This document shows positions 44,010 through 64,000 of a stretch of DNA of 64,000 nt, piece after piece. This DNA comes from a virus. The DNA is taken from positions 88,892 through 152,891 of the IMG/VR virus record IMGVR_UViG_3300045988_066369. One strand, given 5' to 3'. The notes below the pieces were generated by a model that was not told the origin of the DNA, ran no database searches, and saw only the letters and a list, made by a program, of their open reading frames with translations. The position numbers and the translations under genes are program-made. Numbering within the stretch: the stretch's first letter is position 1; each line of letters begins with the position of its first letter.

Positions 44010-44407
44010 CTTAAAATTTTAAAATGTTAATACTGGAAATTGATTTTTGTTTTTGTTTTAGTTTTATATCAATATACAGGGGGGGACTAAAGGGGTTGTG
44101 GACCGCCACTACACTCACTCTATGAATTTTTGGAATCTAGGTAATTACCCTCCAAATATAAAAGTCGGAATTTATAATAACCCCAGGGGCTATTTATATA
44201 AAGTACCTGTACCGGCTTTCCCCTTAATATATAAAATATGTATAATATTTGAATTAGAATTTTTTAACTTTGCGTTTAACTTTTCGGAGGTTATTATTGT
44301 ATATAACTAAAAAGAAAACAATTATGATTACAGACTTAGAAACATTGTTAAATTAGGACTAGTTTAAATAGCTAGTTGAGGCAATTAATACGAATCAAGA
44401 ATATTAT
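44010..44407. promoter_or_regulatory. AT-rich divergent intergenic region separating the minus-strand (early) and plus-strand (late) blocks; likely promoters in both directions
   Basis: About 400 bp non-coding, strand switch, TATAATATTTG-like element. Confidence 0.4.
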
Positions 44408-44725
44408 ATGTCTGGTAATGGGCTAACTATTAAGTCCGAATCTACCGACGATTCTTTGTTCTTATTAATATCTTATGAAAGATAGAAGGAAGAAAGCTGT
44501 CTAGCTAATGAAGAGGTAGACCAATTCCAGAAATATTTAGAATCTCTAGATGATGATTTATTTATAGATGTATGCGAATATCTAGGGGAGCTTGAAGTTC
44601 ATAAAATACAAGAATGCTTAGAAAGCGGCAAGTTAGAAACAGTAAGAGCTGGTATTGCTAAATTTAAAATGGCATTGTCAGATATAGCTAAAAAGAGAAT
44701 TGAACAACTGAAAGCTTATGTATGA
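44408..44725 (+). CDS. small hypothetical protein with one in-frame TAG (codon at 44483)
   Basis: Own translation MSGNGLTIKSESTDDSLFLLISYER(TAG)KEESCLANEEVDQFQKYLESLDDDLF...KRIEQLKAYV, ends TGA 44723-44725. Confidence 0.45.
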
Positions 44726-44863
44726 ATAGGTTGCTCAAATGAGAATACTATTAGCTAATATCAACGCTACTATGCAGGCTTTATTTCACGAAAATGAACA
44801 ATTAAGAAAAGAACTAGAGAAATTGGCAACAGAAAATAAATCTCTAAAAGAGAAATAAGTTAC

Positions 44864-44935
44864 TGCCCTATGGTGTAATGGTTAGCACAGATGACTCTAA
44901 ATCATTTAGTCTGGGTTCGAATCCTAGTAGGGCAA
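44864..44935 (+). tRNA. amber suppressor tRNA-Sup (anticodon CTA), paralogous to the phage tRNA-Gln(TTG)
   Basis: Acceptor tgcccta/tagggca, D-arm identical to tRNA-Gln (tggtgtaatggttagcac), anticodon stem gatga/tcatt loop ctctaaa, T-arm ctggg-ttcgaat-cctag. Confidence 0.8.
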
Positions 44936-44952
44936 CGCCAAAATTAATAGTT

Positions 44953-45180
44953 ATGATAAAATTAAATGAGAATTATGTAGTAACTCCAACAGGAGCTAAA
45001 ACTCTTATTATAGAAGAGGGAGACGATTGGAATAAAGTTTGTGAGAAGGTAGTTGGAAGTAAGTTTGATTATATCTTTGTACCTCAAGAATTTGAGAATC
45101 AAGCCTGCTATTTTCTTCCGCAAATAACAGTTCAAGGAAAACAGATAGGTAAGATATGTACTTATAAGGTATTAAAATGA
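44953..45180 (+). CDS. hypothetical protein (track ORF trimmed; N-terminal extension is the tRNA-Sup sequence)
   Basis: MIKLNENYVVTPTGAKTLIIEEGDDWNKVCEK... Confidence 0.45.
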   Translation: MIKLNENYVVTPTGAKTLIIEEGDDWNKVCEKVVGSKFDYIFVPQEFENQACYFLPQITVQGKQIGKICTYKVLK

Positions 45181-45491
45181 AACAGTGTGCAGTTGTATTA
45201 AATGGAAATGATGTTGTCAAAGTCTCTAATTTAAAGAGAAAATACGACAAGATAATGAATAACCCTAATATGAAAATATTAGAGGAATGTGATATGGAAA
45301 TGTTAGATGAAAAGTACAACTATTGGAATAGAACATTAAATAGAAATACAGAAGAGGAGAAAAAAGAAGAGGCTAAGATGCACCACTTTAAAAATCCGAA
45401 AACTGGATGCTCTATAACAAGTATCTATCCAGATTTGGAAGAATGTAAATCATATATAAAAGACTGGATGGATTATGTTAAACTTGATTGA
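45177..45491 (+). CDS. hypothetical protein
   Basis: 104 aa ORF. Confidence 0.45.
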   Translation: MKQCAVVLNGNDVVKVSNLKRKYDKIMNNPNMKILEECDMEMLDEKYNYWNRTLNRNTEEEKKEEAKMHHFKNPKTGCSITSIYPDLEECKSYIKDWMDYVKLD

Positions 45492-60499: not shown

Positions 60500-62317
60500 A
60501 TGGCAGCAATCAAATCTATAAAGGTTGGGGAAACCACATACGATTTAAAAGCTACTTACGATGGTGCTGGAAATGTTATAGATACGACATATGCCAAGGC
60601 TAATGCAATTCCAACTAAAACTTCTTAGTTACAGAATGATAGTGGATATTTAACTGAGCATTAGGATATTAGTGAATTAGCTACTAAGGGTGAGCTTGAA
60701 GGCAAAGTAGATAAGGAGTTAGGAAAGGGACTTTCTGAAGCCAATTATACTGAAACTGAGAAGGAAAAGTTAAGTACTATAGCTAATAATGCTAATAATT
60801 ATGTACATCCAACTACTTCTGGAAATAAACATATTCCATCTGGAGGAGCGTCTGGATAGATGCTAGTTTTCTCAGCAGATGGTACTGCTGAATGGGCAGA
60901 TTCAAGTTCTAAGCTAGAAGAGCAATTTACAGCGCTAAATGAGGCTTGGGAAGAATTGTAGAAGGCACAACAAAAGCTTGATAAGTAGATTACTGAGCTA
61001 AATAGTAATATGGATTTATATTCCTATGGAGTAGAATGGGATGTTACAGTAGCATCTCCGGAACTTACTAGAATAGGTAATCCTTTGCTGCATAAATCTC
61101 TTCCTATTCAATCAGCGTATAGAGGTTGTGTAGCAAACAATGATGTAGTAAATTACTATCTGTTTCCAGATGACTGGTCTTATAAAGAAGACGGAGAAAC
61201 TCCATCTGTCTTAGATGGAACTGATGGAACAGTAAGAGTTAATACTCCTAAATTTTATGGAAAATCTGGCAGCGATGGAAACAAAAGATGGGTTAGAACT
61301 TCTACTGTCAAAATTGATGATTCATGGGTAGAAATTCCTGAACTATTAATAGATGCATACAGAAGTACAGTTGATACCACAGTCTCCGCAACTCCAAAAG
61401 CTGTATCAGTAGTTAATACTACTACTGCATTTAGAGGTGGAGGAAATAGAGCTAACTACGATGATTATCTAACTACAGAATTAGAAACTAAGGATATATT
61501 CAGAAGTGATTTAGGAAAGCCTAGAACTAATATTTCTAGAGCTACTATGAGAACATATGCAACAAATGCTGGTTCAGAATTGCTATGCTATGAATATTAC
61601 AAATGGATATTCTACTGGAATTATGTCATTGAATATGCTAATTTTAATTCTTAGGCTGCATATAATGCAGAGTTAACTGCGGATGGATATCATCAAGGGG
61701 GTTTGGGACCTGGAGTTACAGATTGGGCTAACACAGCTACAAGTTGGTCAGGATATAATGCAACATATCCACTTACGCCTTGTGGTTACTGCAATGAATT
61801 TGGTAACTTCACTGGAGTAAAAGATTTAGTTATTCCAGAATGTACAGCTCAAGATGGCACAAATACAGTAGCAACTCATACATTTAAAGTACCTCGCTGG
61901 AGAGGGTTCGATAATCCGTTTGGAGACATTTGGACTAACCTGGACGGAGTAGTTATAGTGAGAGCAGCTGCTAATGAGATTAGCACTGTCTATACAACTA
62001 CTAACGTATCGGAATTTACCGACGTAGTTGGAGAGAAAACCGTTGCAGGATACGAAGTAGCATCTGATGGTTATATTAAGGCATTTGACTTAGGTGAAAC
62101 CGCTGAAATAATTCCATCCGCTGTTGGAGGAAGTGCTACTACTTATATTTGCGATTACCATTACTGCAACGCAAGCAGCACAGCGCTTCGCACGCTGCTG
62201 GTGGGCTGCCGCGCGAGTAGTGGCGGCGCTGCGGGTCTCGGCTCTTTCTATTCTAACTATGGCGTCGGCGGTGCCGCTTCCGATGTCGGGTTCAGGACTC
62301 TGAATAGAGTATCTTAA
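60500..62317 (+). CDS. DGR target: tail-fibre-like receptor-binding protein, 606 codons with at least 6 in-frame TAG, C-terminal variable region
   Basis: Continuous frame-2 reading from ATG 60500 through track ORFs 61010..61654 and 61703..62317; fibre-like motif HIPSGGASG(Q)MLVFSADGTAEW; C-terminus encoded by GC-rich VR. Confidence 0.7.
62194..62293 (+). repeat. DGR variable repeat (VR) at 3' end of target gene
   Basis: 100-nt GC-rich segment; base-by-base alignment to TR (offset +201) shows 24 mismatches, all at TR adenines. Confidence 0.85.
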
Positions 62318-62394
62318 GATATACAATATAAAAATCGATTTAGATGATAAATCGTAGGATATTACTTCTAAAAACCGTTGATTGGCAAAAAAGT

Positions 62395-62494
62395 ACTGCT
62401 AGTAGGCAGCAACGCGAATAATGGCAGCAATGCAGGTCTCAGCTATTTCAATTCTAACAATGACGTCAGCAATGCCAATTCCAATGTCGAGTTA
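62395..62494 (+). repeat. DGR template repeat (TR), non-coding, AAT/AAC-rich
   Basis: 31 adenines of which 24 are substituted in VR (16 A->G, 5 A->C, 3 A->T); zero non-A mismatches. Confidence 0.85.
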
Positions 62495-62634
62495 TTATAT
62501 ATTTAGAAACATTTTATTATTTTTTTTTAGTTTGCTAAGTAATATCCTTGCCTCTAGGCAAAAGATAACATAGTGTTGAATGAAGGGTGTTAGTAGGTTA
62601 ACTCTCGAACGCTTCCGATGAAATATATAAAAAA

Positions 62635-63846
62635 TTGAAACGTGTAGGATATTTGCACGAGAAAGTATACGCTGAAGATAACATCGAACTAGCTGACGAT
62701 AAAGCTAGAAGAAATAAGTCTATTAGATGTGGAATCAAGCAGCATGATAAGAATAGATTAAAAGAAAATAAGGAATTATCCGATAAGTTAAGGGATTTGA
62801 TTTATCAAACCTCTGAATATAGTACCTTTATAATATACGAACCTAAAGAAAGATTAATCTTTAGACTTCCATACTATCCAGATAGAATAACTCACCATGC
62901 TATAATGAATATTATGGAGCCTATTTGGACTAGTATATTTATAGACCAAACATATTCCTCTATACGAAATAGAGGTATTCATAAAGTAGAGTATGATTTG
63001 TTCAAGGTGTTATAGAAACATCCAGAAGAAACAAAGTATTGCTTGAAAATGGATATAAAAAAATTCTATCCTTCTATAACTCACGACATTTTATACGAAA
63101 TGTTATAGAGAAAGATAAAGGATAAAAAACTATTAAAACTGTTGAAAGAAATAATTTATTCAGCGAAGGGAGTTCCTATTGGAAATTATCTATCACAATT
63201 CTTTGCAAATTTATATCTGACATATTTTGACCACTGGGTAAAAGAGGAGTTAAAATGTAAGTACTACTTTCGATATGCTGACGATATTGTGATTCTTGGT
63301 AATGACAAGAATTATTTGAGAAATGTATTAGTATCTATAAAACTATATCTGAAACAGGTTCTTAACCTAGAGTTGAAGCCTAATTATCAAATATTCCCTG
63401 TAGAAAGCAGAGGTATTGATTTCGTAGGCTATAAATTCTATCATACTCATGTTCTACTGAGAAAATCTATAAAAATGAGGATGTTTAGGCTTATAAATCT
63501 ATATAAATAGAATAAGATTGATAAAGATGAATTGAATAGAAGAATGAGGTCTTATTTTGGATGGATGAAATTTTGCAACTCTAAGAACTTGCTGAGAAAG
63601 GTAGAGGAGTTAACTGGATTGAAATTCTCTAACTGGAATGGAAAAGAAGTTAACATATCTAAGTTTTATAATAAATATATTCACATTGTAGAGGTTGTTG
63701 ATTATGACAATCATTTTCGAGTGCATTTCATGTATAACAATAAACCCTACTATTTTAAAAGTAAGAATAGGAGATTACACTATTCTTTGCTTAGATACAA
63801 ATTTCCTATAAATTTTAAAATAACACCTTATGTTAGAGCCGAATAG
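62635..63846 (+). CDS. DGR reverse transcriptase (3 in-frame TAG)
   Basis: Track ORFs 62635..63015, 63142..63510, 63532..63846 share one frame and are joined through TAGs; motifs LKMDIKKFYPSI, GVPIGNYLSQFFANLYL (DGR-type I/LGxxxSQ), YADDIVILG (YxDD). Confidence 0.8.
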
Positions 63847-63853
63847 AATACAA

Positions 63854-64000
63854 ATGGACGTTTATCCTTAGACAATCCAAAAACTTGGGAACGGTACTTA
63901 TTACTATAACTATGATATAAAAGAAATTAGTGTTAAAGTATCTGATTTAGATAATACCGTAAAAGAAAAAACTTACTATAGTTTTATATAGGTATTAATA
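63854..64000 (+). CDS. hypothetical protein, partial (continues past window end), in-frame TAGs
   Basis: MDVYP(TAG)TIQKLGNGTYYYNYDIKEISVKVSDLDNTVKEKTYYSFI(TAG)VLI... Confidence 0.35.

Follow-up and report, generated by a model that had tools for sequence, protein, structure and literature searches.

In the late genes of this phage, TAG is confirmed to stand as an in-frame codon and its reading as glutamine (Gln) is supported, in line with a phenomenon already known from other phages. The window analysed is a stretch of 64,000 nucleotides, about one third of the genome. It combines in-frame TAGs with no other in-frame stops, a Gln signal, a conserved suppressor tRNA, a partition of TAG by strand and block, and conserved TAG-free islands. 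The source is very probably a human-gut crAss-like phage of the Zeta-group type, with two codes, in which TAG in the late block is read as Gln through a phage-encoded amber suppressor. Across the whole window, 124 in-frame TAGs are distributed over 16 genes without a single in-frame TAA or TGA. All but one of these genes lie within 44.3-64 kb, the remaining one being an HNH gene at 27 kb. The features of the late region are:

44324..44725, plus strand: first plus-strand gene, four in-frame TAG, upstream of the CUA suppressor tRNA
44864..44936, plus strand: suppressor tRNA, anticodon CUA (reads UAG), Gln-like (ARAGORN; Rfam tRNA, 66.5 bits)
45177..45491, plus strand: TAG-free gene inside the plus-strand block, likewise without TAG in its homologues from three relatives
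45946..46338, minus strand: small gene, two in-frame TAG (TAG count, comparison with relatives)
46602..46943, minus strand: small gene, one in-frame TAG, conserved across it
47058..47972, plus strand: PD-(D/E)XK nuclease, TAG-free island (Pfam PDDEXK_1, 25 bits against a cut-off of 22)
48184..48507, plus strand: small Cys-rich protein, one in-frame TAG, aligned with Gln in a relative
48516..49118, plus strand: TAG-free gene, also without TAG in five relatives
49329..49907, plus strand: late gene read with TAG as sense, five TAG, end TAA TAA
49939..50505, plus strand: late gene, five TAG (phrog_16390)
50508..52871, plus strand: terminase large subunit (TerL), 20 TAG, TGA end (phrog_6681, E 6e-60, residues 92-711)
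53063..55234, plus strand: portal protein, 28 TAG, TAA end (phrog_6547, E 9e-42, residues 316-699)
55236..55967, plus strand: late gene read with TAG as sense, nine TAG
55942..56709, plus strand: late gene read with TAG as sense, four TAG
56865..58439, plus strand: late (virion) gene, 12 TAG (weak match to tail-protein phrog_788)
58439..60283, plus strand: late (virion) gene read with TAG as sense, 20 TAG, internal repeat, TAA end
60289..60498, plus strand: small late gene read with TAG as sense, two TAG
60500..62317, plus strand: tail protein and target of a diversity-generating retroelement (DGR), six TAG (phrog_5302, E 7.5e-82)
62195-62292, plus strand: DGR variable repeat (VR), within the tail protein
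62396..62493, plus strand: DGR template repeat (TR), paired with the VR
62635..63909, plus strand: DGR-type reverse transcriptase (RT), four sense TAG, TTG start, TAA end (phrog_1423, E 3e-112)

An earlier note on this DNA had placed a late block with TAG as sense at 44400-64000. Coverage was measured as the fraction of each 8-kb bin that lies in stretches of 100 codons or more without a stop. Under code 11 the eight bins give.94,.89,.72,.78,.55,.39,.18 and.50, whereas with TAG as sense they give.94,.93,.84,.87,.79,.60,.96 and.95, the bin at 48-56 kb rising from 18% to 96%; TGA as sense brings no comparable gain. Code 11 thus yields far lower coding density, which leaves the claim of recoding standing, with its onset moved to 44324, in the gene 44324-44725. 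The note's two other tests, on the placement of the TAGs and on in-frame TAA or TGA, do not refute the claim either. TAG density is light from there up to 49.3 kb. With TAG as sense, TerL, portal, a tail protein and RT regain their full length.

In frame, the 4131 codons of the nine core late genes include 109 TAG and neither TAA nor TGA, while in both off-frames of these genes TAA and TGA together occur at 0.055-0.066 per codon. From this rate we calculate a chance of ~1e-21 for a 787-codon frame free of TAA and TGA. The PHROG profiles for terminase and portal align unbroken through many TAG positions, the Pfam RVT_1 match (residues 76-267 of RT) covers two TAGs, and the terminase nuclease motif reported to continue across a TAG, VAGIDGIDIGAN-TAG-TSKETRDPSDF, is found in the sequence; the TAGs are placed inside conserved domains and not at gene boundaries. 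Full-length homologues of TerL exist at 97-72% identity. The TAG counts and stop codons claimed earlier for TerL and for 49329-49907 are reproduced in the list above, as are the TAA ends of portal and of 58439-60283. RT had been described as ending at 63846 with three TAG; it is indeed recoded, but 63846 is itself a TAG, so that the count is four and the end 63909. Relatives conserve the 20-residue C-terminal tail past this TAG, and in one of them Lys stands in the TAG column. VR and TR are 77% identical, and by our reading of both repeat copies the mismatches all fall on A positions of the TR.

Upstream of the core genes, 44324..44725 is conserved across its TAGs in L008, L009, L001 and L003, the match in L002 covering the 3' part only, and the TAG of 48184..48507 stands opposite Gln in L008 (98% identical). 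The assertion that the whole structural half is untranslatable under code 11 leaves out of account the block's three conserved TAG-free genes. The nuclease, expected to hold about 8 TAGs in its 304 codons, has none here or in five relatives (72-100% identity).

In the minus-strand block (1-44 kb), genes for replication and nucleotide metabolism are accompanied by about 20 tRNA genes. The following features of this block bear on the code:

27010..27447, minus strand: HNH endonuclease among tRNA genes, TAG at codon 13 (HNH domain, residues 96-141)
29991..30063, minus strand: phage tRNA-Gln, anticodon UUG (ARAGORN)
42512..42582, minus strand: second suppressor-type tRNA, anticodon UUA (ARAGORN; Rfam tRNA, 57.9 bits)
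42609..42779, minus strand: RAGATH-14 RNA (Rfam RF03145, 172.7 bits against a gathering score of 149.1)

Internal TAG amounts to ~0 in 7411 minus-strand codons. Confident minus-strand ORFs (n = 62) end in TAA (40), TGA (17) or TAG (5), and each of the five TAG-ended ORFs has a backup TAA or TGA within 5-15 codons. TAG thus appears still to serve as a stop for five genes, which points to a dual-code genome and not a uniformly recoded one. The HNH gene is the only one with an internal TAG found in this block. As had been claimed, its TAG is in frame, within a helix-turn-helix match (GerE/HTH_38, residues 10-43), though the gene ends at 27447 and not 27448. The in-frame TAG claimed for the minus-strand gene 46602..46943 is likewise present, and conservation continues across it; relatives carry TAG at CAA/CAG positions of the window (e.g., PLQKKRA vs. 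PL*KKRA).

Sequence comparisons make Gln the best-supported meaning of TAG. Among the Gln codons of the nine core late genes, TAG would be the commonest (109), ahead of CAA (79) and CAG (28). When only real sense codons opposite TAG were counted in 12 genes of two relatives (L001 and L002), most encoded Gln, as the earlier note had expected (Q 65, E 29, K 29, T 20), and under an empirical substitution profile the log-likelihood of Q is -590 and that of E, the next best, -766. At the TAG columns of terL, the 91 non-TAG codons of relatives include 25 CAA and 7 CAG, and close relatives show direct TAG/CAA or TAG/CAG swaps. Gln makes up 2.6% of late proteins without TAG and 5.2% with it, compared with 2.9% of early proteins. 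The standard-code TerL of MT835470 (43% identical) has Q in 3 of 17 aligned TAG columns, the others being mostly E, K, R and D, which is compatible with Gln but weak alone.

The CUA tRNA is 79% identical to the tRNA-Gln(UUG), its nearest tRNA in the window. The D arms of the two are nearly identical, the T arms are similar, and both have U1-A72 and A73; tRNA-Gln(UUG) is likely the parent or paralogue of the suppressor. At the matching position, all five relatives checked (L001, L002, L003, L008, and L009) have a homologue with anticodon CTA. The suppressor gene lies inside the recoded block and downstream of a gene already needing suppression (44324-44725), an anatomy from which the timing logic is not evident. 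In E. coli, supE-type amber suppressors have a tRNA-Gln body with the anticodon changed to CUA and insert Gln at UAG, and the UUA anticodon of supB/supG-type ochre suppressors reads both UAA and UAG. In contrast to such weak suppression of rare nonsense mutations, a dedicated phage gene would here serve >100 sense positions.

The UUA tRNA would read UAA and, by wobble, UAG. It is encoded on the minus strand near the strand-switch point and might be made early. Its homologues carry CTA in L001, L014, L016, L017, L019, L020, and L021 and TTA in L010 and L013, have a 6-nt anticodon loop in L012 and L018, and are degenerate in L009 and L011. A UUA anticodon should also read TAA, the main stop codon in both blocks. 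The RAGATH-14 RNA sits 26 nt 5' of this tRNA on the same strand, and the same order is found in 11 related viral contigs. RAGATH-14 always precedes the second suppressor tRNA (UUA here; CUA or defective in relatives), an association that is possibly new: term searches of PMC7886860 and PMC12386605 brought up neither such a link nor this second suppressor with anticodon UUA. In the latter, "TTA" has no occurrence, and the rows listed of its Table 1 give only CTA and TCA. A TTG(Gln)-to-TTA suppressor that arose in a different tRNA block is described by Yutin et al. (PMC7886860).

Relatives of the source phage occur on contigs of 180-196 kb, which fits the Zeta crAss-like group, a putative assignment by shared features. 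Late-gene TAG-to-Gln recoding with suppressor tRNAs is described for crAss-like phages, including a 145-192 kb family (PMC7886860), and amber Zeta phages combine a CTA tRNA with a DGR whose RT contains amber codons (PMC12386605). The Zeta amber phages in these papers (e.g., ctoVY1, cthgQ11, 3717_85572; Yutin et al., 2021, PMC7886860; 2025, PMC12386605), with genomes of 176-189 kb, share with the source phage a human-gut source, GC of about 35%, 20-28 tRNA genes, a CTA suppressor tRNA, TAG-to-Gln recoding mainly confined to late genes, a DGR with tail-fibre target and amber-containing RT, a PD-(D/E)XK nuclease in the structural block, and DnaB-like and SNF2-like helicases and an AAA+ ATPase in the replication block. 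Code-15 crAss-like phages, for which metaproteomics proved TAG to be Gln (Peters et al., 2022, PMC9523058), also have in-frame TAG in structural genes, an encoded suppressor tRNA, and ORFs that are fragmented under code 11 and restored under code 15; they are other genomes, validated by peptides, whereas the source phage is known from sequence alone. Recoded gut phages such as Lak, Agate, Jade and Garnet (Borges et al., bioRxiv 10.1101/2021.08.26.457843) share early genes compatible with the standard code, recoded structural or lysis genes (a preference for lysis genes being reported), a suppressor tRNA, low GC and rare TAG stops. The HNH/homing endonuclease of the early region, with its recoded codon, parallels the Agate intron endonuclease of that study. 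Its "code-change module" of RF2, RF1 and aminoacyl-tRNA synthetase was not seen in the window, where a Pfam scan of 26 proteins found neither a release factor nor a synthetase.

The source phage would have a genome of roughly 180-195 kb, with a minus-strand block compatible with the standard code of its presumed host, few of its genes ending in TAG, and a plus-strand virion block (terminase, portal, tail proteins, DGR) in which TAG would make up about half of the Gln codons. UAG would be decoded by the CUA amber suppressor (44864-44936), a probable tRNA-Gln derivative presumably charged with Gln by host GlnRS and competing with host RF1; the second suppressor-type tRNA (42512-42582) may contribute.

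That the interrupted genes are pseudogenes, or their TAGs sequencing or assembly errors, has next to no probability. Fragmentation under code 11 would suit this explanation, but the lack of other in-frame stops and the conservation in relatives, which runs on through the TAGs, already refute it, and assemblies made independently from different samples show these genes to be TAG-rich as well. A host that itself uses TAG as sense, merely matched by the phage, is extremely improbable: nothing in the window favours it, while genes on the minus strand avoid TAG internally and 5 of 62 use it as their terminal codon, the phage encodes its own suppressor, and Bacteroidales and other standard-code hosts are given for this phage group in the literature (PMC12386605; bioRxiv 10.1101/2021.08.26.457843). 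It is very improbable that TAG specifies another amino acid instead, such as Glu, Lys, Tyr, Leu, Ser or pyrrolysine. ARAGORN does call the CUA tRNA "Pyl", by anticodon only, E and K are next commonest opposite TAG, and Q is infrequent in the MT835470 columns. E and K are nevertheless the usual substitutes for Q, which leads E by 176 log-likelihood units; the nearest tRNA in the window is tRNA-Gln, not tRNA-Glu or others; no pyrrolysine machinery was seen among the proteins scanned; and proteomics gave Gln in related phages (PMC9523058).

A more serious contender, though still unlikely, accepts the recoding but sees it as neutral codon capture with no timing or regulatory role: given a suppressor and an AT-rich genome with rare TAG stops, C-to-T drift would turn CAG into TAG in tolerant genes. 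The two codons are one transition apart, TAG positions turn over fast between relatives, and the second suppressor is decaying in several of them. With the suppressor gene inside the recoded block, moreover, transcription alone could already time the late genes. Drift accounts less readily for the sharp partition between ~0 TAG in 7411 minus-strand codons and 109 in 4131 late codons, or for the use of TAG above both standard Gln codons. Three plus-strand genes are also kept TAG-free in three to five related lineages (65-100% identity), which indicates selection on TAG location. If the late-block recoding does have a regulatory role, its purpose may follow the published timing model, in which virion and lysis proteins are blocked until enough suppressor accumulates (bioRxiv 10.1101/2021.08.26.457843), and TAG would then act as a translational lock on the late genes.

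The window has a GC content of 35.7%, and its coding strand changes at ~44 kb, with a GC skew that is negative over 1-44 kb and positive over 44-64 kb. Under code 11, runs of 100 or more codons without a stop cover 94-72% of each of the first four 8-kb bins and 55, 39, 18, and 50% of the last four. With TAG taken as sense, the latter values rise to 79, 60, 96, and 95%, respectively, in line with the earlier note, which had proposed that the late genes use TAG as a sense codon and had suggested comparing coding density under both codes. TGA as a sense codon was rejected, as it brought no gain in coverage, and the gain obtained with TAA was judged non-specific, since AT-rich DNA contains TAA more often than either of the other stop trinucleotides. 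In-frame TAG codons total 124 and are spread over 16 genes. The long plus-strand frames that emerge on reading through TAG were recovered as the earlier note had listed them:

Late genes read through TAG
50508-52871, plus strand: terL, 20 TAG, ending in TGA
53063-55234, plus strand: portal gene, 28 TAG, ending in TAA
58439-60283, plus strand: late gene, 20 TAG, ending in TAA
49329-49907, plus strand: late gene, 5 TAG, ending in TAA TAA

Frequent in-frame TAA and TGA codons, which had been named as the sign of pseudogenization rather than recoding, are absent. Nine core late genes (4131 codons) contain 109 in-frame TAG and neither TAA nor TGA, whereas the other two frames of this DNA have 0.055-0.066 TAA plus TGA per codon, and both pseudogenization and chance are therefore excluded as the source of the TAG-interrupted frames. 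With TAG masked as X in the translated frames, profile searches identified the terminase large subunit (phrog_6681, E = 6e-60, residues 92-711), the portal (phrog_6547, E = 9e-42), a tail protein (phrog_5302, E = 7.5e-82), and a reverse transcriptase (RT; phrog_1423, E = 3e-112; Pfam RVT_1, residues 76-267), and the PHROG and Pfam alignments cross the TAG positions without a break. The gene at 58439-60283 also contains an internal 45-nt repeat (copies at 59081-59125 and 59738-59782, plus strand); one TAG is common to both copies, and another TAG in copy 2 lies opposite AAG (Lys) in copy 1.

Residue counts at the TAG columns of 119 database homologs of the terminase large subunit (TerL) gave Gln in most columns. 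These counts were set aside as circular because the relatives are also recoded and their proteins were called with a TAG-sense table. The amino acid was therefore assessed at the codon level on the DNA of related viral contigs, counting real sense codons only, using L001 (79% TerL identity) and L002 and L003 (72%). In terL, the 91 non-TAG codons opposite TAG include 25 CAA, 7 CAG, 17 GAA, and 9 AAA. Across 12 genes compared with L001 and L002, the sense residues aligned to TAG include 65 Gln, 29 Glu, 29 Lys, and 20 Thr, and a likelihood built from each amino acid's empirical substitution profile in the same alignments gives a log-likelihood at TAG columns of -590 for Gln versus -766 for Glu; Gln is the residue that the earlier note had expected. 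Close relatives show direct swaps: HKL-TAG-TSF in the window is HKLQTSF in the 98%-identical contig L008, while PLQKKRA in the window is PL-TAG-KKRA in L009 and L001. The TerL of phage record MT835470 (43% identical, standard code, TAG-free) has Gln at 3 of 17 TAG columns and mostly Glu, Lys, Arg, or Asp at the others, which is compatible with Gln and weak on its own. Counting TAG as Gln changes the Gln share of the late proteins from 2.6 to 5.2%, with the minus-strand proteins at 2.9%. TAG makes up 25-67% of the Gln codons in recoded genes and is overall their commonest Gln codon. LC-MS/MS metaproteomics of other crAss-like phages has shown TAG to be translated as Gln (PMC9523058). The recoding first noticed in the window is real, and its interpretation as Gln is very probably right.

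Recoding divides sharply between the two blocks. In 28 confident minus-strand genes (7411 codons), which include those for the DnaB-like helicase, the SNF2/ResIII helicase, two AAA ATPases, and the NAMPT/NAPRTase, OmpA-like, and SPFH proteins, internal TAG is about zero. The 62 confident minus-strand ORFs end in TAA (40), TGA (17), or TAG (5), and each TAG stop is backed by a TAA or TGA 5-15 codons downstream, such that the following five ORFs would gain short C-terminal extensions after the onset of suppression:

ORFs ending in TAG
19535-19801, minus strand
21248-21673, minus strand
22130-22804, minus strand
39840-39980, minus strand
41455-41919, minus strand

Within the minus-strand block (1-44 kb), an internal TAG was found in a single gene, that of an HNH endonuclease (27010-27447, minus strand) located among tRNA genes; the TAG is codon 13 and falls within the helix-turn-helix domain. 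A second HNH-like gene at ~28549-29100 has no internal TAG. On the plus strand, recoding begins at the first gene, 44324-44725 (4 TAG), and TAGs are sparse as far as 48.5 kb and dense beyond 49.3 kb. The small minus-strand genes at 45946-46338 and 46602-46943 carry sense TAGs conserved in relatives. An in-frame TAG had earlier been reported for 46602-46943 and for the HNH gene, and each indeed has one, conserved in the former case. Three plus-strand genes are free of TAG:

TAG-free plus-strand genes
45177-45491, plus strand: TAG-free in 3 relatives
47058-47972, plus strand: PD-(D/E)XK nuclease (Pfam PDDEXK_1) of the structural block, TAG-free in 5 relatives
48516-49118, plus strand: TAG-free in 5 relatives

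These relatives represent all homologs found, at 65-100% identity. For the nuclease, ~8 TAGs would be expected at the late-gene rate and none is present, which argues for selection acting on where TAG is permitted. Expression of these three genes may precede the code switch. Recoding is limited to late and structural genes and the early genes are compatible with the standard code, with the HNH gene at 27 kb and the three TAG-free genes as exceptions, where early and late are labels assigned from gene content. From the TAG-ended and TAG-free early genes, together with the literature, we infer a host that uses the standard code.

ARAGORN predicts 22 tRNA genes in the window, of which 20 lie on the minus strand at 16.6-37.7 kb. 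A tRNA-Tyr with the unusual anticodon ATA was called at 23676-23758 (minus strand), tRNA-Tyr(GTA) and tRNA-Cys(GCA) are each present twice, and three additional Rfam tRNA-like matches (38634-38700, 37949-38015, and 29171-29247) have no ARAGORN call. The remaining two tRNAs are of the suppressor type, one on each side of the strand switch:

Suppressor-type tRNAs called by ARAGORN
44864-44936, plus strand: suppressor tRNA, anticodon CUA
42512-42582, minus strand: suppressor-type tRNA, anticodon UUA

Among the tRNAs of the window, the CUA tRNA is closest to tRNA-Gln(UUG) at 29991-30063 (79% identity). The two D arms are almost identical and the T arms are similar, and both tRNAs have the U1-A72 pair and A73. 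All five relatives examined have a positional homolog with the CUA anticodon, and we take this tRNA to be a supE-like amber suppressor. If functional, the UUA tRNA would decode UAA, as well as UAG by wobble. Its homologs in related contigs carry the anticodon CUA in seven cases (L001, L014, L016, L017, L019, L020, and L021) and UUA in two (L010 and L013); in L012 and L018 one nucleotide has been lost from the anticodon stem/loop, leaving a 6-nt loop, and in L009 and L011 the homologs are visibly degenerate. From this spread, the second suppressor looks amber by ancestry and now variable or decaying in this lineage. A Pfam scan of 26 window proteins, from a window of approximately one-third of the genome, found no release factor, no aminoacyl-tRNA synthetase (GlnRS included), and no tRNA-modification enzyme.

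The RT gene was previously taken to end at 63846. This position is itself a TAG, and homologs run on past the column with Lys or Gln. Relatives retain the tail beyond it, NTNGRLSLDNPKTWERYLLL, at 83-99% identity, and one that does so has Lys at the TAG position; the stop of the RT is therefore the TAA at 63907-63909, and the gene contains four sense TAGs.

Elements of the diversity-generating retroelement (DGR)
62195-62292, plus strand: variable repeat (VR), at the 3′ end of the tail-protein gene
62396-62493, plus strand: template repeat (TR)
62635-63909, plus strand: RT, TTG start, TAA end, four sense TAGs

The VR and TR are 77% identical, and every mismatch, as read from the two copies, falls at an A in the TR. 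By sequence, the tail-protein gene and RT (60500-63909, plus strand) form a complete, classic DGR.

The best taxonomically classified matches to TerL belong to Crassvirales, at 25-29% identity. TerL is 43-44% identical to that of the unannotated human-gut phage records MT835470 and MT835539, and a blastn search of a phage collection with terL and portal returned only three unannotated gut records (66-69% identity). The contigs carrying closer TerL relatives (72-97% identity) reach 196 kb, those with relatives at 72-79% measuring 179-196 kb, and viral contigs of 183 and 192 kb contain a stretch identical to the window. The Zeta crAss-like group has genomes of 145-192 kb with many tRNAs, suppressor tRNAs, and reassignment of TAG or TGA mainly in late genes (PMC7886860). 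As a proxy, the 179-196 kb contigs of the relatives were taken as agreeing with this genome size. Further likeness to the group lies in the PD-(D/E)XK nuclease of the structural block and in the helicases and AAA+ ATPases of the replication block:

Replication-block genes
611-1720, minus strand: DnaB_C helicase
2565-3851, minus strand: ResIII/Helicase_C (SNF2) helicase
10048-10875, minus strand: AAA ATPase
25320-26747, minus strand: AAA ATPase

Amber members of the Zeta group (PMC12386605) have a CTA tRNA, a DGR, and amber codons within the RT gene; likewise, the window has a CUA (CTA) tRNA, a DGR, and TAGs inside the RT gene. By features only, the phage fits a Zeta-type crAss-like phage. Several mobile insertions seen in relatives are absent from the window, namely a DUF723 gene splitting the portal gene of L002 (12504-15900), intein and LAGLIDADG domains in the TerL homolog P0003 (1131 aa), and a LAGLIDADG insertion at the PD-(D/E)XK gene position in L009 (4813-6747). 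Other minus-strand genes of the window encode a NAMPT/NAPRTase adjoining a PRTase-like protein (7305-10069), a pair that suggests NAD salvage; an OmpA-like beta-barrel protein (11935-12984); and a 657-aa SPFH/Band-7 protein (31278-33251) with the top coding score of the window.

In the published model, early genes are translated under the host code, and a phage suppressor subsequently unlocks the structural and lysis genes (Borges et al., bioRxiv 10.1101/2021.08.26.457843). Applied to this phage, early genes would be read under the host code until the suppressor unlocks the late genes, giving the recoding a putative function in timing. Three caveats apply to this mechanism. The CUA tRNA gene itself sits inside the recoded block, downstream of a TAG-containing gene that already needs the suppressor; the second suppressor gene is close to the strand switch and encoded by the minus strand; and the UUA anticodon should also read TAA, the stop used most in either block. 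A neutral history of codon capture is a live rival as to why the recoding exists. Against pure drift stand the sharp division between the two codes and the islands that stay TAG-free in relatives.

The UUA tRNA is preceded on its own strand, at a distance of 26 nt, by a RAGATH-14 RNA (Rfam RF03145, 172.7 bits; 42609-42779, minus strand), and the pair is located beside the strand switch. Contigs IMGVR_UViG_3300045988_050009 and IMGVR_UViG_3300045988_058553 each contain, without a mismatch, a 97-nt piece of the window made up of the linker and tRNA directly 3′ of the RAGATH-14 match. This module of RAGATH-14 followed by a suppressor tRNA recurs in 11 related viral contigs of 106-193 kb, found in two independent ways, through a tRNA 3′-end pattern and a RAGATH-14 core pattern (relatives listed: L010, L012-L014, and L016-L021), with the spacer reaching up to 55 nt. 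No description of RAGATH-14 was found in the literature searched. It is conceivable, albeit improbable, that RAGATH-14 acts as a processing or sensing leader governing release of the second suppressor and thereby constitutes a second, regulated input to the code switch that has not been described. Such a leader could control the timing or strength of UAG readthrough, and of UAA readthrough in the UUA variant, and the CUA, UUA, and defective anticodons among close relatives would then represent tuning or loss of this input. In the window itself, no ribozyme turned up when 41.3-47.1 kb was scanned permissively against Rfam. Among the relatives, a RAGATH-1 hammerhead ribozyme occurs in L003 (654-740, minus strand) and a Pistol ribozyme in L017 (5596-5669, plus strand), at loci covering the neighborhood homologous to 41.9-43.5 kb of the window. 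A sigma-70 promoter and terminator scan of 41.9-45.6 kb gave 12 promoter-like sites versus 14.6 +/- 4.5 in shuffles, with no excess and no information on the timing of suppressor transcription.

Annotation under code 11 would break up the genes for the terminase, portal, tail protein, DGR target, and RT, which makes the recoding of high practical relevance, and annotation pipelines need to treat TAG as sense across 44.3-64 kb and to apply the standard code elsewhere. TAG recoding is already described for Zeta crAss-like phages, including experimentally in related phages, and this phage leaves existing knowledge unchanged. What may be new is limited to one lead, namely that RAGATH-14 is conserved as the partner of a second suppressor tRNA whose anticodon varies. 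Otherwise, the phage adds one more well-resolved example to the established picture: the boundary between the codes is sharp, the TAG-free islands are conserved, Gln is encoded preferentially by TAG, and early TAG stops have back-up stops close by.
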